From Dictyostelium discoideum (lineage: Eukaryota), in NCBI GenBank assembly GCA_000004695.1, contig CM000151.3:3808001-3872000 (forward strand): a DNA stretch of 64,000 nt, read 5' to 3'. The notes beneath the pieces were generated by a model. It made no database searches and was not told the origin of the DNA. It saw only the letters and a list, made by a program, of their open reading frames with translations. Within the stretch, counting starts at the first letter, position 1; every line of letters starts with the position of its first letter. This document shows, one piece after another, positions 1-18,768 of this stretch. Position numbers and translations under genes: made by a program.

Positions 1-2
1 TA

Positions 3-566
3 TTATGCGATTATGTTGGCGTTGATGAATTTATTAAACTCATTTCAGATGTTGACCCAGATCCAATTTACATTTGTGAAAAGATCAGTGTTTGCAAAAC
101 CAACGATAACGCAGCTGCTTCATTAGATTTAGTTCAAATTAACCCACAAAACGGTACTGTCGGTGGAACATTCACCCTCTCAATTGCTTACACTGTTACC
201 AACACCATCGCCACTGGTCAATTAGCTTTCAATATCATCGATCCAACCGGTAATGCTTTTGGTGATGCCGTTTTATTAGTTCAACAATCACCAGAACAAT
301 ACACCCAACAATTCCAATTCCAAGCTACCCCATCAGAACAAGAATCATTCCCAAATGGTTTATACACTGTCCAAGCTCTCGTTTGTGAAGGTTCATGTGG
401 TTCACCACATCCAAACACTTACACTCTTGCCAACGGTACCACCACTTTCACCATCTCTGGTGCTGATTCTTCATCAATGTCTGGTGCTGGTTCTTTCTCT
501 GGTTCTTCCCAATCAACCCAAACTGGTGCCGCCTCTGGTTCAGGTTCAGGTTTTGCTTTATTTTAA
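3..566 (+). CDS. 3' end (C-terminal ~187 aa) of a secreted saposin-like / lipid-binding protein; the gene starts upstream of the window.
   Basis: The frame is open from position 3 to a TAA at 564-566. Translation reads ...CDYVGVDEFIKLISDVDPDPIYICEKISVCK... (saposin-B-like Cys spacing) followed by a Thr/Ser/Gly-rich tail. The frame was derived by hand; the track's 355..594 ORF is in a different frame. Confidence 0.45.
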   Translation, partial: LCDYVGVDEFIKLISDVDPDPIYICEKISVCKTNDNAAASLDLVQINPQNGTVGGTFTLSIAYTVTNTIATGQLAFNIIDPTGNAFGDAVLLVQQSPEQYTQQFQFQATPSEQESFPNGLYTVQALVCEGSCGSPHPNTYTLANGTTTFTISGADSSSMSGAGSFSGSSQSTQTGAASGSGSGFALF

Positions 567-1243
567 AAAAATACTTATTAAAATAAATATTTAATTTTAT
601 AATTTTTTATTTAATTCTATAAATAACTTGGATTTTTTTATTTTTTATTTTTAAAATTAAAATTTTTTTTTTTAAAACCAATATTCCCTCTCGTTTTTTC
701 AAAAATAAAAAAAAAAAAAAAATAAAAAAAATTAAACGATTTAGATCCCCAACTCTCTATATCTAAAAAATGTTTAAAAAATTAAAAAAAACTTATTCCA
801 TAAAAAAAAAAAATTAAAAAGAAAATCATATTTTTACGAAATCTATAAAAACCGGATTTATAAATCTGTTTTTTTTTTAAACAACCAACCACCCAACTTG
901 TTATTTAAAAACAAAATTAGTTATGTTTTGATTAAAACTAAATAAAAATAAATTTTTATGTTTTAATTTAAAAATTCTTTATGTATATTTTTATTAATTG
1001 TTTTTTTATTTTTTTTTTTTTTTTTTATTTTTTTATTTTAATTCCAAGAATTAAAGTCATGACCAACCAACAAATAATTTTTTCACAATTTGGAAAAATA
1101 AAAAAAAACAGAATGGTTACACTCATTTTTTTGAGTATTTTAGAGCTCTATTTATCTACTAATTCATATTAAAAATAAATAAAATTAGATAATTTTTTTA
1201 AAAAAAAAAATATTTAAATAAAATAATATTAAAATTTGTAAAA

Positions 1244-1281
<38 letters not shown>

Positions 1282-1415
1282 GCCAAATTTAAATTTTTTA
1301 TTTTTTATTTTTTTTTTAAAAAAAAGGAGGTCAAAGAAATAATATTTCATTCAAATAATATTTCATTCAAATAATATTTCATTCAAACAAAAAAAAGAAA
1401 AATTATTTACCGATT

Positions 1416-4603
<3,188 letters not shown>

Positions 4604-4611
4604 GTATGTGT

Positions 4612-4675
<64 letters not shown>

Positions 4676-4775
4676 TAAAAATAATAGTAAAAATAATATT
4701 AATATTAATAATATCAATAATCTTTTATTTTTAATTTTTTTTTTTTTAAAAAAGAATTATTTCATTAGAATATAG

Positions 4776-7112
<2,337 letters not shown>

Positions 7113-7182
7113 AAAACAAATATGTTTGCCCCTTTATAAGGGTATCTTTAAAAAAATGGATATTTTATCGGTTTTTATTTTA

Positions 7183-7868
7183 TTAATATAATGGCATACA
7201 TGGGCTTTCATAAAAACATATAACCTTTACAAAATTTTCAAATTGTGAGGCTGATTTTATAAACTCCTCACGAGACATTCCTTTTTGATAATCTGCAATA
7301 TGACGACACGACGTAATAAAGACTGCTTAGTCAATAGCGTCATTGATTGAATAACCTAAACCTTTACCACAACATACAACTATATTAACTAATTAATCTA
7401 CCTCTTCTCTTTCAAGATAACCACTTTTATCACTATCAAACAAATCAAAAAAGATTCCTAATTAATCTAAAGTTGGCGCTTTGGCCATTAAATATAATGC
7501 TGTTATAAACTCTTTTACATCAATTACTCCATTCTATTTTTTTTTTTTTTTTTTTTTAAACCAATTTTAACAATAATTAAAAATTAATATAAATTAATAT
7601 GTATTTTTAATTATTACACTAAATACTAAAAATTACTTACACCATCAGAATCAAATAATGTAAACATTCTAACCATCGAAGCTTCATCCCAATTACTAAA
7701 ACGAACCTTGAAGAATTTGATAAACTCCTCTTGTGAAAAACCAGATTTTTTATCAGATGCTGCTGCTACTTTAAAGTCTTTAATTAATTGTTCAATATCC
7801 TCTGGAGTATATTTGGTTTTTTTAATTATTTCTTCTTTCTCCTCTTTTGATAGTTTTGAATTTCCCAT
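7183..7868 (-). pseudogene. Paralogue of the NCS/recoverin-type EF-hand gene at 8298-8995. Exon 1 (7641-7868) is intact, but exon 2 (7183-7533) carries three in-frame TAA stops and an ~11-codon insertion.
   Basis: Exon 1 is MGNSKLSKEEKEEIIKKTKYTPEDIEQL...FTLFDSDG, ending at an ACTTAC (rc GTAAGT) donor at 7635-7640. Exon 2 translates NGVIDVKEFITALYLMAKAPTLD*LGIFFDLFDSDKSGYLEREEVD*LVNIVV...AID*AVF... The stops sit where the intact copy has AAA (Lys) codons or no corresponding sequence. Confidence 0.5.
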
Positions 7869-8297
7869 GTTTTAAATGTATTGATTTTAAAAAAAAATAA
7901 AATTTTTTGAAAGTTTTAAATAACAACTTAGAAAGTTTTTTTTTGATTTGTTTTTTTTATTTTTTTTTTTCAAAAAAAACATTTAAAAAATATCTTTTCA
8001 GCAAAATTTTTTGGGTTCAGATTTTTTTTTTAATCATTTTCATTTAACTTTTTTTTTTTTTTTTTTTGGGCAACCCAAAAGTAGTTTTTAATAATTTCAT
8101 TTTGAATAATAAATGATAATAAAAAAATTATTATAAAAATAATCATAATAATAAATTTCTAAATAAATTATTATTGCATAATTTAGTTTTTTTTTTTTTT
8201 TTTTTTTTTTTTTTGAGACCATATATAAGAATATAATCTTTAACCCCATTTTTTTAATAATTAATAGTAAAATAATTTCATTTTTTTTATTATTTTT

Positions 8298-8630
8298 ATT
8301 TTAATATAATAATTGTTTGCAAGGGTTGTCATAGAAACATATCATTCTAACGAACTTGTCTGATTGAGAAGCTGATTTTACAAATTCTTCACGAGAAATT
8401 TTTATGGAAGTGATAGAATAAACAAAATCAATTGCTTCACTTGTTGTGTAACCCATTGCACTGCTACATACAACTACAATATTAACTAATTTTTCAATTT
8501 CTCCAGCTTCAAGATAACCACTTTTATCACTATCGAATAAATCAAATAAAAATCCTAATTTATCTGTAGTTGGTGCTCTTGTCATCATATAAAGAGCTGT
8601 AATAAACTCTTTAACATCAATCACACCATT
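8298..8630 (-). CDS. Recoverin/NCS-like EF-hand protein, exon 2. The full product is ~185 aa.
   Basis: The acceptor (reverse complement of ct at 8631-8632) is followed by NGVIDVKEFITALYMMTRAPTTDKLGFLFDLFDSDKSGYLEAGEIEKLVNIVVVCSSAMGYTTSEAIDFVYSITSIKISREEFVKSASQSDKFVRMICFYDNPCKQLLY*. The EF-hand loops are DSDGNGVIDVKEF and DSDKSGYLEAGE. Confidence 0.7.
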
Positions 8631-8767
8631 CTTTTTTTTTTTTTTTTTATTATTATTTTTTTTAAAATTAATAAGTTTTAAAATATATATATACATATTT
8701 TTAAATTAATAAGTTTTAAAAAACATATATTGGTTTAAATAATTTAATAATATTATAAATTACTTAC

Positions 8768-8995
8768 ACCATCAGAATCGAATAATTTGAACATTCTAAC
8801 CATTGATGCTTCATCCCATTCGTTGAAACGGATTCTGAAGAATTTGATAAATTCCTCTTGTGAAAAACCAGCTTTTTTGTCTGATGCAGCAGCAACTTTG
8901 AAATCTTTTGTTAATTGTTCAATATCACCAGAGGTATATTTGGTTTTTTTCATTATTTCATCCTTTTCTTCTTTGGATAGTTTTGAATTTCCCAT
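8768..8995 (-). CDS. N-myristoylated recoverin/neuronal-calcium-sensor-like EF-hand protein, exon 1.
   Basis: MGNSKLSKEEKDEIMKKTKYTSGDIEQLTKDFKVAAASDKKAGFSQEEFIKFFRIRFNEWDEASMVRMFKLFDSDG, with an N-terminal MGxxxS myristoylation motif. The donor GTAAGT is the reverse complement of 8762-8767. Confidence 0.7.
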
Positions 8996-9434
8996 TTTTG
9001 AATGTAATTATTTACAAAAAAAAGAAAAAAATAATGATAAATAATAATAAAAATTAATAATAAAAAAAAAAAAAATGATTTCTCTTTCCAAAAAAAAAAA
9101 AAATTCGATAAGTTGAAAAATCTAAAATATTCACCACTAAAAATAAAAAATTACAATTTTTTTTATTTGAAAATTTTTCTTCATAAAAAAAAAAAAATCG
9201 CTATCAATTTTAAAATTATTATAATTAAAAATTAATAAAAAAAGTGGAAAACTCAATAATTGACCATATTTTTTGAATCTTATAATTTAAAATTAAGAAA
9301 AAGGAAAGAAAAAAAAAAATATAAAAAAATATAAAAAAAAACCTCTTAACTGTGTGGATTGAGTTTGGTACAAAAATTAGGTTACAAACAATCCTTTTTT
9401 TTCATTATTATTGCGCCATACGTATTTATTAAAT

Positions 9435-9554
9435 TTATTCTTGAATAGCGATATCAGAGCATTGATAAAAATCTGGCTCTGGTTCTCCTGCATTATTACT
9501 TATATATCTAACTCTTAATACACAACTTTTGCAAGTTTGTGTTGGAAGGGTAAC
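9435..9554 (-). CDS. Small secreted protein, exon 2 (39 aa + stop).
   Basis: The acceptor is the reverse complement of ct at 9555-9556. The exon reads VTLPTQTCKSCVLRVRYISNNAGEPEPDFYQCSDIAIQE* with a TAA that is the reverse complement of 9435-9437. The 88-nt AT-rich intron (9555-9642) fits the local intron style. Confidence 0.55.
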   Translation of the reverse strand, partial: VTLPTQTCKSCVLRVRYISNNAGEPEPDFYQCSDIAIQE

Positions 9555-9642
9555 CTATTTTTAGATTTATTTTAATTAGTTAATTTGAAATGAAAAAAAA
9601 AAATAAAAATAAAAATAAAAATAAATATAATAGTAAACTTAC

Positions 9643-10020
9643 TGAAACACTATAATTGGTTTGAGTAACCATATCCCAAGCATTGAAATCATCAATTGTT
9701 GGACTAAGTACAATATAGTCACCATTATCGCCATCGTATGAGAGTGAAACATCTAAATAACCAGGATTTGGTTTATACCAATGATTGTAATTTTGTTGGA
9801 AGAAAACTTGGATGGTAGATTCAGGGCTATATGATTTAACTGGTGCTCCAGTTGTTGTATTACCACAATTACTACTAACTCTATAACATGCGTTGTCACC
9901 TGGTTGAATTGGAACTCCCCAATTTGGTTCTCTTTGTGGTGGATCAAATAAACATAGATGTGCTAAAGCAAAACTATTTAACTGTAAAATTATAATAATA
10001 GCAACAATATATTTTATCAT
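9643..10020 (-). CDS. Small secreted protein, exon 1: a signal peptide followed by a mature N-terminus beginning with His.
   Basis: The ATG is the reverse complement of 10018-10020. Translation: MIKYIVAIIIILQLNSFALA|HLCLFDPPQREPNWGVPIQPGDNACYRVSSNCGNTTTGAPVKSYSPESTIQVFFQQNYNHWYKPNPGYLDVSLSYDGDNGDYIVLSPTIDDFNAWDMVTQTNYSVS. A GTAAGT donor at 9642-9637 (- strand) is phase 0. The track ORF's upstream MMHSN... part is intergenic read-through. Confidence 0.6.
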
Positions 10021-10301
10021 TTTGAACAAATAATAAATAAAAAATAAAATAACTTTTTTTTTTAGTTTTTTTTTTTTTTCAGAACACAACAGAAATTTAA
10101 AAAAAAAAAAAATAAAAAAAAAAAATGAAATGGTTTTGGAAAAATCATTCGAATGCATCATTCGAATAATATCAAAAAAAAAAAATCAAAAAAAATCAAA
10201 AAAAATCAAAAAACCACTGTTTGAAAAAAAACTAAAAAACTAAAAAAAAAAAAAAAACTTTTTTTTATCATAAAACCATATACAAAAAAAAAGTATATAG
10301 A

Positions 10302-10844
10302 ATGATTAAATATTCAATTTTATTAATTTTATTCATTGGTATCCAAAGCATTTTATCATCATACAATTGTTGTGTCCCAAGTCAATGGCAAGGTTCATCA
10401 TTGAGCTATGATGATTCTGGTAGAGAGTTCACAAAGAATTATTATTATGACGCAGATAAATTATTAGTTAGAATCGATATAATTTATTCAGATGGTAGTT
10501 TTAATCAAAGTACATACAGTAGTTATGCAAGTTTAACTCAAACAGGTACAGAATGGGTAATGAATAATTTGGATGGCACTTGTTACCAAACTGGACCAGA
10601 TTTTTGGAATGCTCAATGTTTTGGTGATAAATATGGTGTTCCATTCTCTAGTTCCACCAACAAAATCAATACTTTCTCTAACCCATCCAATGGAATCACT
10701 GTTATTACCGATATATATTGTTTACCAGTTTCAATTACCAATAAACTTGCAAACCTCCAATTTAAATTTTTCAACACTCAAGCTCATGTTTCTGATGAAT
10801 CTGTGTTTAGTGCCCCACCAGCTTGTAGCAGCAGCAATAATTAA
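10302..10844 (+). CDS. Secreted ependymin-related (MERP-like) protein.
   Basis: Signal peptide MIKYSILLILFIGIQSILSS is followed by CCVPSQWQGSSLSYDD ... GTCYQTGPDFWNAQCFGDKYGVPF ... VFSAPPACSS. This matches the ependymin pattern C-x-P-x-QW-x-G ... LSYD ... conserved Cys ... F(S/T)PP(S/A)C. The ATG at 10302 is canonical. Confidence 0.6.
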   Translation: MIKYSILLILFIGIQSILSSYNCCVPSQWQGSSLSYDDSGREFTKNYYYDADKLLVRIDIIYSDGSFNQSTYSSYASLTQTGTEWVMNNLDGTCYQTGPDFWNAQCFGDKYGVPFSSSTNKINTFSNPSNGITVITDIYCLPVSITNKLANLQFKFFNTQAHVSDESVFSAPPACSSSNN

Positions 10845-11066
10845 TTAAAATTTATTAATAGCGTTCAAAATAGAAATAAAAAAAAACTGTTTTAAAAAGT
10901 GATAAAAAATAAAGAATTATTCCTTTTGGAATATTTTCTCAAACTACACTTTCTATTCATTAATGTTTTTGTTTTTTTTAACATCTTTAAAGGGAAATGA
11001 ATTATAAAAACTGAAATTATTTGGATTTGGAATAAAAAAACCTTCTATTTTAAAAATAATAATTTC

Positions 11067-11097
<31 letters not shown>

Positions 11098-11293
11098 GGT
11101 CGAATATAATTTGAAATTTGGTATATGGAAGTAAATGATATTTTTAATGACATAAGATAATTTTGTTATTAATTCTTTTAATTTTCTTTTAATTAAAAAA
11201 ATAAAAATATCGTGATATTTCCAGCAAAGCAAAACTTTTCGAAAAAAAAATATATAAATTTTTTTTTTAAAAAAAAATAGTAAACAGATTTAT

Positions 11294-11325
<32 letters not shown>

Positions 11326-12040
11326 AGAAAGAATATGAAAGAATTAAAATTATTATTTTTATTAATAATTGTTGTATTACAATATTGTATGGTAGATGGC
11401 GCAGTAATAAATTTTGTACCAGTTCTATCAGACTCAAGATAGTAGTGTTGAACAACCAAATTCATCTTCTGCATCATCCTCTTTAGAGGGCTTAAATTGT
11501 ACTGAACCATATCAATATCAATCAAAATGTTATGAAATTGCTTCCGAAGCTTATACTATAAGTTATTGTTATGATCCAAATTATAATTAATTTTATAAAA
11601 AAAACTAATAAAAAATCCATAATTTTGATATCTAAAGTTTTAGGGATTTATTTATGTTTCAGTGAGTTATTAATATATCCCTTTTTTTTTTAAAATGAAT
11701 TTTAAAAACAATTTATAATAATTTCTTATTATTTTTATTGTAATTTACTAAAAATTATTTATTTATACAAAAAAAAAAAATAAATAAACTTGTTTTATTT
11801 TAAGTATTTATTGAATGAAATGATAATAAAAAACAATCAAAATAAATATTATAATATATTATTGACTAAATATATTAATATCTGAATAAATGTTATGAAT
11901 ATAAATAAAAAAAAAAAGGTAGTAAAAATACCTTTTAATAAAATCAAAATAAAACCAAAGTATAGAACAATAAAAAAAAAAAAGTAAATTAAAACTTTGA
12001 ACCTTTTGGGTCTTTTTTATTTAAATTTAAGAAAAAAAAA

Positions 12041-12235
<195 letters not shown>

Positions 12236-12319
12236 ATTTACTATTATGTTTTTTTTTTTTTTTTAAAACTTTTCAATTTCTAGTGATATCATATTTTTGT
12301 GTTTATTTTTTATTTTTCA

Positions 12320-12356
<37 letters not shown>

Positions 12357-12359
12357 TTA

Positions 12360-12734
12360 TTAAAATAAGGTTGCAGATTTAAACTGTTTACTAATTGAAA
12401 GTGTTGGTGGTGGTGAAATTGATAGTAAACCAAGCTCAGCGCCTTGTTGGAATAGATCGCTTTCGGTGAATGCTTGGTTCATAGTTATTGGATTATGAGT
12501 ACGTATTGGAGGTGTCAATGGTTCAGAGCCATTGAAGCAATTCAATGGTGAATAGCTATGAATAAAAAGTGGGATTTTCATGTCAAGTGTTCCATCGCTA
12601 TGATTTTCGGTAATAGTATCTATGGTTTGACTTAACAAAATATTATCATTACTATTACTTTCATCCACTTTGGTGTTAATGTTATTATTATTATCATTAT
12701 TATTTGAATTATTATTATTATTATTATTATTTGA

Positions 12735-12768
<34 letters not shown>

Positions 12769-13553
12769 ATGGTAGTGATGATTTCACTACCCTTTTCACT
12801 ACCACTGATAGCTCCTTGCCCATTATTATATGAAGGCGAAATGGAAACCCTACTTTCAAAGGTATCCAAAAAACTAATTGTTTGTGGTTGGGATGATGTT
12901 GGTGTTTGCGTTTCTAATTTACATTTTAAAATATTATTGACAATATTGTTTGGTGTTATATATTCGGTGTTTATATTTTCATTATCATCGATCTGTATCT
13001 CATTGTTTCGCAAATTTGAACAGGATTCGATATTTATCGCTATTTTACTATTGTTATTGTTAACAAGTGAGTTAATGTTATTTTTACTATTTACTTTACA
13101 TGTCATTATAGTTTTATTATTATTATTATTATTATTAACTTTACTATTATTATTTAAAAAACTAACCAATTTAGGTTTGGTTGGAGTTGGTCTAATGCTA
13201 ACAAGTTGTTGTGGAGAGCTTAATGATTGTCTTATTGGTGGTTGAAAATTGTAGTCATCATTTTTGTTGTTGTTATTATTATTGTTGTTGTTGTTATTAT
13301 TATTATTACTATCTACAGAATCATCGTATATATTAAAAGAATGTAAGATGATAGTTTGAATTTCATTTCCTGCTTCCTCAAATAAACTCTCTTCAACAAA
13401 TTTTGTACAGTTGGTTGATGTTGATCTAGAGTGAGAGGGTTTCCATGGTTTGGGTGCGACAATCTTCTCCAAGTTATTATAATCTATACTTATCCCATGG
13501 TCACCCATAAAGGTACGAGGAGAAAATGACCTGTTTGGCATTATTTTGTTCAT
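12360..13553 (-). CDS. Hypothetical Asn-rich protein (397 aa) with no recognisable domain.
   Basis: A long ORF on the - strand with a canonical ATG and higher local GC than its surroundings. It contains poly-N and poly-T/S low-complexity runs. The antisense + ORFs (12670..13245 and others) are repeat artefacts. Confidence 0.45.
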
Positions 13554-13622
13554 TCCTTTATATTTTTTTGTTTTTTCTTTATTATTTTACTTCTTTATTT
13601 TATCTTTTTTTTTTTGTATTTT

Positions 13623-13653
<31 letters not shown>

Positions 13654-13753
13654 CTTATAATCTTTTTTTTTTTTTTTTTTTTTTTATTTGTTTGTTTGTT
13701 TGTTTATTTACAAAGGTTGGGAGAGTATTTAAATATTTTCTCTTTTCTTTTTT

Positions 13754-13784
<31 letters not shown>

Positions 13785-13996
13785 TTAGTTCTTGTTTCTT
13801 TAAAGTCTGGTAACAATAACGGCGAGGAAAAAAAAAAAAATAAAAAAAATAAAAAAAGAAAATAAAAAAAATAATAAAAAAAAAAAAAAAAAAAAAAAAT
13901 AAAAATAAAAATAAAAAGTTGTTTTTGATGGCACTTACATTTAATTTTTTATTTATTTTATTTAAAAACTAATATATACAATTAAAACTAAAATAA

Positions 13997-14027
<31 letters not shown>

Positions 14028-15029
14028 CCTAAGGTTTATTATTACTATACAAAAAATTTATTTACTATACATATAAAACAAATAAAACTATTATTATTAC
14101 ATAACAATATAAAAAAAAAAAAAACAAATATTTATTACATATATCATATATGTATATAATTTATATTGTACACAAAAAAAAAAAAAAAAAAAATAAAATA
14201 AATAAAAAAATAAAAATAAAAATAAAAAAAAAAATAAAGAAAAAAAAAAGAAAAATTTAATTAAAATAAAATAAAAAATTAAATAAAAAAATAAATAAAG
14301 TTGAAAAAATCTTTTTATGTTACTTTAACACACCACTCACCTTAAAAATTTTTTTTTGTGTGTAAAATTTTTAATGTTGGAGGTGTTTGCTTTGTTTTTT
14401 TATTTTTTTTTTTTTTTATTTTTAATTTTTATTTTTATTATTATAATTTTATTTTATTTTATTTTATTTTTATTTTTGCCCGAAACAATACTAATTATAA
14501 AAAGTAATAAAAAACAACAAAAAAGATGAGAACCCTTCTATTTTGGTTAGATTATATTTTTTTTTTATTATTTTATTAATAGAGTGTTCCTTTGATTGTT
14601 TGAAATTTATCCGATTTTTTATTATTTTTATATTTTTAATTTTATTTTTTTTGATTTTGTCCAAATAAATTAAAGGAAATTGGAAAATATTAAATCCTAA
14701 AAACCTACAAATTTGGATTTTAATTTAAAAAAAAATAAAAAAAAAAAAATCAGGAATAAAAATTTTTTTTTTTTTTTTTTTTTTTTGTTACTTAAAAGTA
14801 ATTAAAGTTTTTGGATGAATTCATTTCCAATAGGACATAAATTACTTCAAAATATCCATAGTAATTACTGTCTCTTCTCAAAAAGGAAATGAATTGTGCA
14901 ATTGTTTTATTTTGATTTTTGATTTTTTTATTTTTTTTCATTTTTTTATTTTATTTTTATTTTTTTTTAATTTTTTTTTTTTCAAATTAAATTTTTTTTT
15001 TTTTTTTTAAATTTCAAAAATTTTTTTTT

Positions 15030-15063
<34 letters not shown>

Positions 15064-15147
15064 CTTATTTCATAAAAATTTTTTATTACTTTTTTTTTTT
15101 TTTTCATATATTTTATTTGGGAAAAATAAATAAATAAATAAATAAAT

Positions 15148-15590
15148 ATGTCAGCTCCAGTTTTAACCACCAGTAGTGGTTCACCAATTGATAACAATTT
15201 AAACTCAATGACCGCAGGTGTTAATGGTCCAATTTTAATTCAAGATTTCACTTTAATTGATAAACTTGCTCATTTCGATCGTGAACGTATCCCAGAACGT
15301 GTTGTACATGCTAAAGGTGCTGGTGCCCATGGTTATTTCGAAGTTCCCTCAAGTGATGTACCAAAATGGTGTAAAGCTAAATTCTTAAATAAAGTTGGTA
15401 AGAGAACACCAATCTTCACCCGTTTCTCTACTGTTGGTGGTGAAAAAGGTTCATCCGATTCTGAAAGAGATCCAAGAGGTTTCGCTGTCAAATTTTATAC
15501 TGAAGAAGGTAACTTTGATATGGTCGGTAATAATACTCCAGTTTTCTTTATTCGTGATCCATCAAAATTCCCAGATTTCATTCATACACA
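15148..15590 (+). CDS. catA: Catalase A, exon 1.
   Basis: [66 protein letters not shown]... includes the catalase proximal active-site signature. A GTAAGT donor at 15591 leaves phase 2 (ca|gtaagt). Confidence 0.9.
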
Positions 15591-15671
15591 GTAAGTAAAA
15601 AAAAAATAAAAAATAATAAAAAAATAAAATAGATGCTAATATATTTTTTATTTTTTTTTTAAAAAAATTAG

Positions 15672-16719
15672 AAAACGTAATCCACAAACAAATTGTAAAG
15701 ATCCAAATATGTTTTGGGATTTTTTAGGTCAAACACCAGAATCAACACATCAAGTATCAATTTTATTCTCTGATAGAGGTACACCAAAATCATATCGTCA
15801 TATGCATGGTTTCTCATCACATACCTTAAAATTTGTTAATGCTCAAGGTAAACCATATTGGGTTAAATTACATTTCACCAGTGAAACTGGTATTCAAAAT
15901 TACACAGCTGAAGAAGCTGCCAAGATGTCAATGAACGATCCAGATTCAGCAACTCGTGATCTCTTTGAAACCATCGCCAAAGGTGGTGAACCAGCTTGGA
16001 AAGTTTCCATTCAATTGATGGAATTTGAAGATGCCTTAAAGTATCGTTTCAATCCATTCGATGTAACAAAGATTTGGTCACACAAAGACTATCCATTAAT
16101 TCAAATTGGTCGTATGGTTTTGAATCGTAATCCAGAGAATTACTTTGCTGAAGTTGAACAAGCTGCCTTCTCACCATCCCACATGGTTCCAGGTATTGAA
16201 CCATCACCAGATAAGATGTTACAAGGTCGTCTCTTCTCTTATCCAGATACTCATCGTCATCGTTTAGGTGTAAACTATCAACAAATCCCAGTCAATTGTC
16301 CATTCGCCGTAAAGGGTGGTGTTAAAAACTACCAACGTGATGGTTTCATGGCTGTCAATGGTAATGGTGGTAAAGGTCCAAACTATCAACCAAACTCTTT
16401 CGGTGGTCCAGAGCCACATCCAGAATTTGCTCAACATAAATTTGACGTCTCTGGTTTCGCTGCTCGTCAACCATACAATCATCCAAATGACGACTTTGTT
16501 CAACCAGGTGATTTATATAGACTCATGTCTGAAGATGCCAAATCTCGTTTCGTCTCTAATTTAGTCGGTCACATGTCCGGTGTCACCATCAAAGAAATTC
16601 AAGTTCGTGCCGTTTCAAACTTTTACAAGGCTGACAAAGATTTAGGTGCTCGTTTATGTAAGGGTCTTGGTATTGATGTTAATGATGTCATCAAATTCGC
16701 TGCTAGATCAAACTTGTAA
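15672..16719 (+). CDS. catA: Catalase A, exon 2. The spliced product is 496 aa.
   Basis: The acceptor ttAG is at 15670-15671, and ca+a = Gln. The exon reads ...KRNPQTNCKDPNMFWDFLGQTPESTHQVSILFSDRGTPKSYRHMHGFSSHTLKFVNAQGKPYWVKLHF..., including the RLFSYPDTHRHRLG heme-ligand region. TAA at 16717-16719. Confidence 0.9.
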
Positions 16720-16914
16720 ATCAATATATTAAAAATAATAAAAAAATAAAAAAATAAAAAAAAATAAAAAATTAAATCTCAATCTTTTTTTAATTATAAA
16801 AAAAAATAAAAAAGAAAAAAATTAAAAAAAAATAAAAAAGAAAAATTAAAAAAAAAAAACAAAAAACAAAAAACAAAAAACAAAAAACAAAAAACAAAAA
16901 AAAAAAAAAAAAAA

Positions 16915-17100
16915 AAAATCAAACAAATGGACCATAGTATGAAAGTTTGATCAAACTTGTTGACATATTTTTGCATCACCTATAGTGTAGTATATGAAAT
17001 GTTGTTGTATGTACAAAATTTAAATAAAAAAAAAAAAAAATCAAACAAATGGACGATAGTATGAAAGTTGACATTTTTTTGCATCACCATAGTATGAAAT
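16915..17100. repeat. Imperfect tandem direct repeat (two ~60-90 bp units, each preceded by poly-A) in the catA 3' intergenic region. Unit 1 contains a perfect 12-bp palindrome, gtttgatcaaac.
   Basis: Unit 1 is 16918-17010 (tcaaacaaatggaccatagtatgaaagtttgatcaaacttgttgacatatttttgcatcacc...tatgaaat). Unit 2 is 17040-17100 (tcaaacaaatggacgatagtatgaaagttgacatttttttgcatcaccatagtatgaaat). Confidence 0.8.
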
Positions 17101-17255
17101 TTTAAAAAAAAAAATTTTTTTTATAATTTTTTTTTTTATAATTTTTTTTTTTTTTTTTTTTTTTTTTTTGATTTTTTTTTTTTTTTTTTAAATTTTTTTT
17201 TTTTTTCTTTTAATTAACACAAAAAAAAAAAAAAAAATCATATACAAATAACAAT

Positions 17256-17310
17256 ATGGGTAATAAACAAGGTAAATCCCCAAATAATAGCAAAGGAGGT
17301 AAAAAATACA
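17256..17310 (+). CDS. Calcineurin-B-homologous-protein (CHP)-like N-myristoylated EF-hand protein, exon 1 (micro-exon).
   Basis: MGNKQGKSPNNSKGGKKY followed by 'a', then a gtaagt donor at 17311 (phase 1). Confidence 0.55.
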
Positions 17311-17352
17311 GTAAGTAATATTATATAATTCACATTTTATTTAATTTTATTT

Positions 17353-17398
<46 letters not shown>

Positions 17399-17443
17399 TT
17401 AAATTTTGTACATACTAATTTTTATATGAATTTCTAAAAATAG

Positions 17444-17488
17444 AAATTGATAATGATGTAGTCAAACAACTCCAAGAATCAACAAATT
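17444..17488 (+). CDS. CHP-like EF-hand protein, exon 2 (45-nt micro-exon).
   Basis: The acceptor aatAG is at 17442-17443. The exon is aa att gat aat gat gta gtc aaa caa ctc caa gaa tca aca aat t (KIDNDVVKQLQESTN), followed by a gtaagt donor at 17489 (phase 1). Confidence 0.5.
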
Positions 17489-17662
17489 GTAAGTAATATT
17501 ATATATATTTATAAATATTTAAAATAAATTAATTATTTATTCTATTTTATTAATTTCTTCTTTTTTGTTTTATTTTTTATTTTATTTTTTTTTTATTATT
17601 AATTTTTTTTATTATTAATTTTTTTTTTTTTTTAATATTTTTTTTTTTTTTAATATTAAAAG

Positions 17663-17923
17663 TTGACAAGGTTGAAGCTAAAAAATTATATGAAGTTTTC
17701 TATGATCTTTCAAATGGAGGTAAAGAACCATTAAATAGGGATAGATTCAAAGAAGGTTTAACCAAATTAGAATCATGTGGTTTAAAGAATCTTGATAATT
17801 CACCATTTGGTGATCGTTTATTCGATTTACTCGATACCAATAAAGATAATACTGTTGATCTTCAAGAATTTATTAGTGGTTTATCAATTTTATGTAAAGG
17901 TACTGCCGAAGAAAAACTCGAAT
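17663..17923 (+). CDS. CHP-like EF-hand protein, exon 3.
   Basis: The acceptor aaAG is at 17661-17662. The exon reads FDKVEAKKLYEVFYDLSNGGKEPLNRDRFKEGLTKLESCGLKNLDNSPFGDRLFDLLDTNKDNTVDLQEFISGLSILCKGTAEEKLE, followed by a gtaact donor at 17924. NSPFGDRLFDLL matches CHP NPLGDRIINAFF. Confidence 0.55.
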
Positions 17924-18079
17924 GTAACTTTCAATTTTATTTATTATATATATTTATTTTTTTTTATTTTTTTATTTTTCCAATAATAATATATATATAT
18001 ATATATTAATACTTCTTTTTTTTTATTTTATTTTATTTTATTATTTTATTTTTTATTATTTTTTTCAAAAAAAATTTAG

Positions 18080-18396
18080 TATCATTTAAAGCATATGATA
18101 TAGATGGAAATGGATATATTACAAAGAGTGAATTATCACAAATGTTTCAACAAGCATGGATTTCAGGTTTCAAAGCATTATCATATCAAACTAATGAAGA
18201 AGTCAACAAGGATGATTTAAATAATTTTTCAGAGGAAATGGCACAAATCTTTGCAGATGGTGCTTTCTCATCTTTAGATGTTAATGGTGATGGTAAATTA
18301 TCTTTCAATGAATTCAAACAATTCGCAATGTCTCATCCAAAAATTACTGCCACATTAAATGGTTCAAAGAGAGACGTGCCAATTACTTTTGATTAA
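18080..18396 (+). CDS. CHP-like EF-hand protein, exon 4 (two EF-hands and the C-terminus).
   Basis: The acceptor ttAG is at 18078-18079. The exon reads LSFKAYDIDGNGYITKSELSQMFQQAWISGFKALSYQTNEEVNKDDLNNFSEEMAQIFADGAFSSLDVNGDGKLSFNEFKQFAMSHPKITATLNGSKRDVPITFD*. Confidence 0.6.
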
Positions 18397-18768
18397 ATTA
18401 ATCATACAACCATTTCTTTATTAATAAAAAAAATCAAAAAAAAAAAAGTATATAAATAAATTGTAATTAATAGATTTTAACTAAAAAAAAAATAAAAAAA
18501 AAACCCTCTTTTATGGTTTAATTTATTTTGTTTTGGAAGAAAAAAAAAAAAAAAAATATCATAAATACTTAGAATAAAAAATAAAAAAAAAAATAAAAAA
18601 AAAAATCACAAATTTTTTTTTTTTTTTTTTTTTCTTTTTTGTTTTTTTTTTTTTTTTTTTTTAATATATATTATTATTTTTTTTTTTATATATACAATTA
18701 CTACTTTTTTTGTCATTTTTTTTTTTTATTATTTTTTTATTTTAAAAAAAATACTCGAATTTTAAAAG

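Follow-up and report, generated by a model that had tools for sequence, protein, structure and literature searches.

We analysed a window of 64,000 nucleotides (nt) from the Dictyostelium discoideum AX4 reference (GenBank assembly GCA_000004695.1, contig CM000151.3, positions 3,808,001 to 3,872,000 of the forward strand), focusing on a tandem pair of EF-hand genes at window positions 7183 to 8995. A preliminary description of this pair had noted three in-frame TAA codons in the copy at 7183-7868 and had taken that copy for either a recent pseudogene or the source of a truncated myristoylated peptide. Both genes lie on the minus strand and are arranged as follows.

7183..7868, minus strand: gene A, cbpK (Frequenin2; dictyBase DDB0237507; XP_643889.2 / EAL70072.2; UniProt Q86IV7)
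7868-7641, 7640-7534 and 7533-7183, minus strand: exon 1, intron and exon 2 of gene A
8301..8995, minus strand: gene B, "calcium-binding protein K-like" (Frequenin6; XP_643890.1 / EAL70071.1; UniProt Q86IV8), encoding 185 amino acids (aa), intact
8995-8768, 8767-8631 and 8630-8301, minus strand: exon 1, intron and exon 2 of gene B

The arrangement agreed with the preliminary description, namely two same-strand, two-exon EF-hand paralogues, with their ATG codons 1127 bp apart. Exon 1 measured 228 nt in each gene, encoded 76 aa (MGNSKLSKEEKEE...FDSDG in gene A) and was followed by a GTAAGT donor, while intron and exon 2 were 107 and 351 nt long in gene A and 137 and 330 nt long in gene B. In genes A and B alike, the exon junction interrupts an EF-hand loop (DSDG/NGVIDVKE, junction at the slash) that exon 2 completes. 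The two first exons, which had been called nearly identical, shared 84.2% nucleotide identity on alignment, with 36 differences in 228 nt and 11 in the 76 encoded aa. Likewise, a supposed insertion of about 11 codons in exon 2 of gene A resolved into 8 additional codons together with a 1-codon deletion near the C-terminus, a net difference of 7 (116 vs 109). The three TAA codons were present in the window as described, gene B carried AAA (Lys) opposite the first of them, and a protein stopped there would indeed be 99 aa long (76 + 23). Despite these codons, exon 2 of gene A kept its frame up to the conserved C-terminus (...ICFYESPCM.LY, then the terminal stop).

Both genes matched entries that had been catalogued before. 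With its three TAA codons taken out, the translation of gene A was identical to XP_643889.2 (189 aa; AX4, 8.48-Mb chromosome 2), which omits exactly these codons, and the protein of gene B matched XP_643890.1 / Q86IV8 (AX4, chromosome 2) exactly. The 90% protein cluster of gene A further included Q86IV7 (CBPK_DICDI, 192 aa) and GenBank AAT72748.1 ("NCS-1/frequenin-related protein", 192 aa), whereas independent AX4-derived or Logan-assembly cbpK proteins were absent from the 90% clusters. Thus, relative to the catalogued cbpK, the window holds uncorrected AX4 reference bases, while UniProt and AAT72748 give the intact 192-aa protein. A literature search on cbpK and calcium-binding protein K turned up Kollmar 2006 (PMC1634994) alone, which lists cbpK as Frequenin2 (192 aa, one intron, chromosome 2, AY655132), annotates Frequenin6 as "cluster with cbpK", and assigns both genes to the frequenin class on phylogenetic grounds. 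The locus therefore comprises two real, functional, previously catalogued EF-hand calcium-sensor genes of the NCS/frequenin class, cbpK of 192 aa and its tandem duplicate of 185 aa. The tandem pair was already known, and nothing in it differs biologically from the catalogued cbpK and cbpK-like genes. The record AY655132 reportedly originates from Coukell et al. 2004.

Homology searches bore out the earlier assignment of the pair to dictyostelid NCS/frequenin-type EF-hand tandem paralogues. In a search of the PDB, the proteins aligned end to end with NCS-1 and neurocalcin delta (E 1e-14 to 1e-16; neurocalcin delta E ~1e-14 to 7e-16), and the full-length matches comprised NCS-1, neurocalcin delta, hippocalcin, frequenin, KChIP and recoverin (E 1e-12 to 1e-16). 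In the match to Schizosaccharomyces pombe Ncs1 (2l2e), residues 3-184 aligned to 5-186 (E = 2.7e-15). The homology spans the entire proteins of about 190 aa, the mark of the NCS/frequenin class, although identity to NCS proteins is low. Pfam reported EF-hand matches at residues 65-89 and ~99-161. By inspection, the EF2 loop (DSDGNGVIDVKE, split by the intron) and the EF3 loop (DSDKSGYLExxE) are canonical 12-residue Ca2+ loops, whereas the EF1 region (AAASDKKxGFSQEEF) is degenerate and non-canonical and EF4 is degenerate. This recoverin-like pattern predicts two working Ca2+ sites, at EF2 and EF3. In their length, their Met-Gly start and, as judged by eye, their non-canonical EF1 and canonical EF2/EF3, cbpK and the cbpK-like protein resemble the NCS family (NCS-1/frequenin, neurocalcin, hippocalcin, recoverin), and they share the degenerate EF4 with recoverin; unlike in animal NCS proteins, their EF1 has no Cys-Pro motif. 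Their N-terminus is also two residues shorter than in NCS proteins, so that position 6 of the myristoylation motif is Leu (MGNSKLSK) in place of the favoured Ser (Ser/Thr being preferred there). N-myristoylation, predicted from the Met-Gly start alone, is plausible because Gly2 is conserved in all cbpK orthologues.

We then compared the three TAA codons with the corresponding codons of other strains and species, with the following result.

7462..7464, minus strand: TAA 1; AAA (Lys100) in the others; annotated "tiny intron" at chromosome 2 3815462-3815464
7393..7395, minus strand: TAA 2; AAA (Lys123) in the others; annotated "tiny intron" at chromosome 2 3815393-3815395
7327..7329, minus strand: TAA 3; TAT (Tyr145) in the others; annotated "tiny intron" at chromosome 2 3815327-3815329

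All other strains and species, as well as AAT72748, encode Lys, Lys and Tyr at these sites. According to the preliminary description, resequencing that gives AAA at the TAA positions would speak against its reading; the closest genome available (GCA_054883475.1, locus L004) reads AAA, AAA and TAT. The stop codons stand in the window but are most likely absent from the organism, and we conclude that they are very probably base-calling errors of the AX4 reference and the apparent pseudogenisation, with the same confidence, an artefact.

Further evidence came from the distribution of differences around the gene. When we aligned locus L004 to window positions 1-17928, the AX4 window showed 34 mismatches in 17.9 kb, and these were concentrated in a single short interval.

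7105..7485 (381 bp), no strand assigned: probable low-quality stretch of the AX4 reference, with 23 substitutions and 3 small indels relative to L004

This interval covers most of cbpK exon 2 and 78 bp of its 3' flank. The mismatch density within it was 6%, and higher still in the 3' flank, whereas the remainder contained 11 mismatches in about 17.5 kb (99.94% identity), with none at positions 1-7104 and none at 7486-8068. The number expected per 381 bp was 0.7, against 23 observed (P ~8e-31). Fifteen of the differences fall in the coding sequence, eight of them protein-changing and seven synonymous, and a seven-way alignment read column by column showed that all 15 are bases found only in AX4. 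Fourteen of these lie at sites that are identical in the other six sequences, which represent at least four species, synonymous sites included. This polarisation against the other genomes, and with it the AX4-only status, covers the 15 coding differences; the remaining eight lie in the 3' flank. At the protein level, XP_643889.2 lacks three residues and has five changed (Ala93, Ile, Phe, Phe, Pro) relative to the AX2-like protein.

The comparison genome is closely related to AX4. Holland et al. 2025 (PMC12745789) describe three D. discoideum assemblies, AX2-214, CR116C and OT3A, of which CR116C and OT3A are "genetically diverged from AX4", and report that AX2 and AX4 are 99.5% identical at another locus. 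Because L004 alone among the three D. discoideum assemblies was about 99.9% identical to AX4 (L005 differed from L004 by about 3% mismatches), we infer by elimination that L004 is AX2-214, of NC4 descent like AX4. The synonymous divergence (dS) of AX4 from the AX2-like sequence was 0.066 in cbpK and 0 in gene B, only 430 bp away; for cbpK this is as much as separates AX2 from a wild Costa Rican strain.

We further examined cbpK loci fetched from six other genomes of Holland et al. 2025 (PNAS, PMC12745789). This comparison of orthologous loci, which the preliminary description had recommended, showed the 192-codon cbpK uninterrupted in other dictyostelid genomes. An intact 192-aa cbpK was found in three other D. 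discoideum assemblies (the near-identical sister laboratory strain, presumed to be AX2-214, and two wild strains), two D. cf. discoideum, D. citrinum and D. dimigraforme, as well as in Q86IV7.2 and AAT72748.1. With the gene intact in other strains and species, neither a recent pseudogene nor a 99-aa truncated peptide found support. The exon lengths of 228 + 351 nt were invariant among the orthologues, and the pairwise ratio of nonsynonymous to synonymous divergence (dN/dS) ranged from 0.07 to 0.31, indicating that cbpK is under purifying selection. The 8-codon "insertion" was common to all cbpK orthologues and is therefore a difference between the paralogues, not a sign of decay.

In D. citrinum (L002) and D. 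dimigraforme (L003), positions ~5001-5860 held a single cbpK-type gene between an LPMO-like gene and a large helicase gene, and no counterpart of gene B was present at these loci. Gene A would accordingly be the ancestral copy and gene B a younger one specific to the discoideum clade. As judged from these sequences, either the tandem duplication would be specific to that clade or gene B would have been lost elsewhere. In D. cf. discoideum GCA_054859205.1 (L006, 4949-5793), the gene B orthologue is annotated with 173 aa, a different C-terminus (...KFLKIT) and a longer gene span, which may reflect the way it was annotated or a real alteration of its 3' end.

The substitutions in the cluster carry a distinctive signature. 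At 19 of the 23 mismatches, the AX4 base was the same as its 5' neighbour on the coding strand, and all three TAA codons were among these cases. TAA 1 and TAA 2 each arose as GAT AAA to GAT TAA with the preceding T duplicated, and TAA 3 as TAT to TAA with the preceding A duplicated; TCT to TTT and CAA to CCA are further examples. Among 292 natural isolated single-nucleotide polymorphisms between two D. discoideum strains at the locus, the neighbour match was 28%, against which the proportion in the cluster was highly unlikely (P = 8e-8). The cluster is also flanked on both sides by long homopolymers.

7082..7111, plus strand: A30 homopolymer, low-coordinate bound of the cluster
7537..7557, plus strand: T21 homopolymer, high-coordinate bound; on the coding strand, the poly-A tract at the 3' end of the cbpK intron

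The indels (7111-7129) and the densest errors adjoin the A30 run. These features point to base-calling as the cause, not a real lesion in AX4. The proposed course is that 23 single bases, most of them copies of a neighbour, were miscalled in 381 bp of the Sanger-era AX4 chromosome 2 reference. The interval may have been covered solely by homopolymer-slipped reads, resulting from polymerase slippage, or by poor read tails; a ghost trace one base out of register would then have led the base-caller to repeat the neighbouring base instead of the true one. Some 1,900 differences that separate AX4 from its reference have been put down largely to reference errors (Saxer et al. 2012).

The curation of the gene provides another line of evidence. 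Singh et al. 2017 (BMC Genomics 18:120, PMC5282741) list in their Table S1 the "tiny introns" (<5 bp) introduced by dictyBase curators. For DDB0237507 on the minus strand of chromosome 2, three 3-bp introns are bracketed by 3815461-65, 3815392-96 and 3815326-30 (PMC5282741). Their spacings of 69 and 66 nt are those of the TAA codons, and a single offset of 3,808,000 maps all three onto the window, which fixes its position on chromosome 2 at 3,808,001-3,872,000. The dictyBase curators thus already handled the three stops as errors, by way of tiny introns, and cbpK would belong to the four genes that carry three tiny introns and are poorly expressed. Singh et al. consider that arguably none of the 119 introns of <5 bp is genuine and that they are patches for reference errors; in DDB_G0279477, two TAA "introns" appear as TTA in all (100%) of the RNA-seq reads (PMC5282741). 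As with the tiny introns of DDB_G0279477, the TAA codons of cbpK coincide base for base with curated 3-bp introns; unlike that gene, for which RNA-seq reads were decisive, the case for cbpK rests on comparative genomics and the neighbour-copy signature.

Several alternative explanations were weighed against base-calling error. The bases might be real and confined to AX4, the AX3/AX4 lineage having acquired 23 substitutions in a local burst of error-prone, dislocation-type repair synthesis; cbpK would then be knocked out in the reference strain AX4, and what remained would be no more than a 99-aa fragment, myristoylatable and with a single working EF-hand. The bases do stand in the deposited reference, of which UniProt retains Ala93, dislocation mutagenesis can also give neighbour-identical substitutions, and AX3 was derived via chemical mutagenesis. 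We nevertheless give this explanation only a slim chance, since 6% divergence in 381 bp next to zero in the adjoining 7.1 kb lies far beyond known spontaneous processes, and since the rate that Saxer et al. 2012 measured in AX4, 2.9e-11 per site per generation, would give an interval of this size far fewer than one real mutation. The position of the patch between two long homopolymers suggests a sequencing cause, the changes continue, even more densely, into the 3' flank, and the curators, as noted above, did not treat the stops as real. Nitrosoguanidine mutagenesis of the AX3 lineage was tried as a specific source and rejected, as just 4 of the 23 changes are the G:C to A:T transitions that form its signature. 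We likewise rejected gene conversion from gene B, whose sequence is never matched by the AX4-only residues (Ala93, Ile, Phe, Phe, Pro and the stops), adjacent bases having been copied instead, and an introgressed divergent allele, the 15 AX4-only coding bases being found in none of six other genomes.

A loss at the level of the species, in which copy A lost its function after the duplication and decays under relaxed selection, might be suggested by the three stops and the indel relative to the paralogue, and one copy of a tandem duplicate is often lost. We consider its probability very slight, and it is effectively excluded because other D. discoideum strains have intact orthologues. The copy in question is the ancestral one and the only one in D. 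citrinum and D. dimigraforme; it is intact in seven genomes under the constraint described above, with the 8 codons shared and the frame preserved throughout. Moreover, the 15 coding changes occur in the AX4 reference alone, and no neutral divergence is seen in the flanks; relaxed selection is ruled out because it cannot create divergence that is missing from the surrounding neutral DNA. Recoding of the gene into a full-length protein, by TAA readthrough, genuine 3-nt introns or RNA editing, would fit the annotated XP_643889.2, which skips precisely three codons, and the preservation of the frame past each stop. TAA is, however, the standard stop codon in Dictyostelium. A 3-nt intron is incompatible with known splicing (PMC5282741), and a codon-skipping model would leave out Lys100, Lys123 and Tyr145, residues that all orthologues retain. 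Recoding also leaves the 20 other AX4 changes of the cluster and the intact codons of other genomes unexplained, and with a probability close to nil we regard readthrough or 3-nt introns as effectively excluded. Judged from the AX4 reference and the other genomes, cbpK does not combine disabling mutations in the DNA of the organism with neutral evolution (dN/dS about 1) and/or loss in related strains, as a pseudogene does.

Some observations weigh against the attribution of the cluster to base-calling error. The genome used for comparison is that of a sister laboratory strain, AX2-214 by elimination, and not that of AX4. The cluster is made up almost entirely of substitutions, with indels just beside the A30 run, whereas poor Sanger sequence often has indels. 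The ratio of protein-changing to synonymous differences (8:7) is more synonymous than random errors would give (~11:4 expected), although not significantly so. Q86IV7.2 agrees with the AX2-like protein at 7 of the 8 protein-changing sites and retains the reference Ala93 (GCC), where all other genomes and AAT72748 have Thr (ACA; window 7483-7485). Given this Ala93 in UniProt, at least one or two differences (7485, 7483) could be real AX4 variants. Finally, Singh et al. 2017 (PMC5282741) could not confirm cbpK by RNA-seq, the gene being presumably poorly expressed.

The biological weight of these results is small, since the genes are catalogued and the stops already patched. They do, however, call for caution, as scans of the AX4 reference from sequence alone will flag false pseudogenes where Sanger-era base-calling failed, and the 189-aa RefSeq protein XP_643889.2 is itself wrong. 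The neighbour-copy signature, flanking homopolymers and the 2025 AX2-214 assembly together offer a simple recipe to find and correct such stretches genome-wide.

Outside the cluster, we noted further differences between AX4 and the AX2-like sequence. At window position 8388, in exon 2 of gene B, AX4 has GAA (Glu, ...SREEF...), while the AX2-like sequence and the aligning D. discoideum and D. cf. discoideum outgroups have Asp (GAT/GAC). This is probably another single neighbour-copy miscall of the reference, and its correction would alter Q86IV8. In catalase A (exon 1 open reading frame (ORF) 15148..15594), a neighbour-copy difference at 15346 gives GYFEVPSSD in AX4 and GYFEVTSSD in the AX2-like sequence; human catalase has Thr at the aligned position. 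A looser patch at 13659-14600, where AX4 departs from the AX2-like sequence by 8 mismatches and several small indels, lies in AT-rich intergenic DNA upstream of ORF 12360..13553 (minus strand), and at the four sites aligned with outgroups (13659-13922) the AX4 base was the odd one out.

Two neighbouring genes were also identified. In ORF 4915..7083 (plus strand), a long (AAT)n tract at window 6524-6789 encodes about 85 residues of poly-Asn in the C-terminal part of a large helicase gene, which has AAA_11/AAA_12 domains in the orthologue and about 1860 aa in the AX2-like assembly; such poly-Asn tracts are typical of Dictyostelium, and this one dominates BLAST results. A third EF-hand gene of the frequenin class lies at ~17300-18400 (plus-strand ORF 18142..18396; L004 1-662), about 9 kb from the pair and beside catalase A. 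It is probably the Frequenin7 of Kollmar (EAL70283, 225 aa, three introns), located on the same contig.

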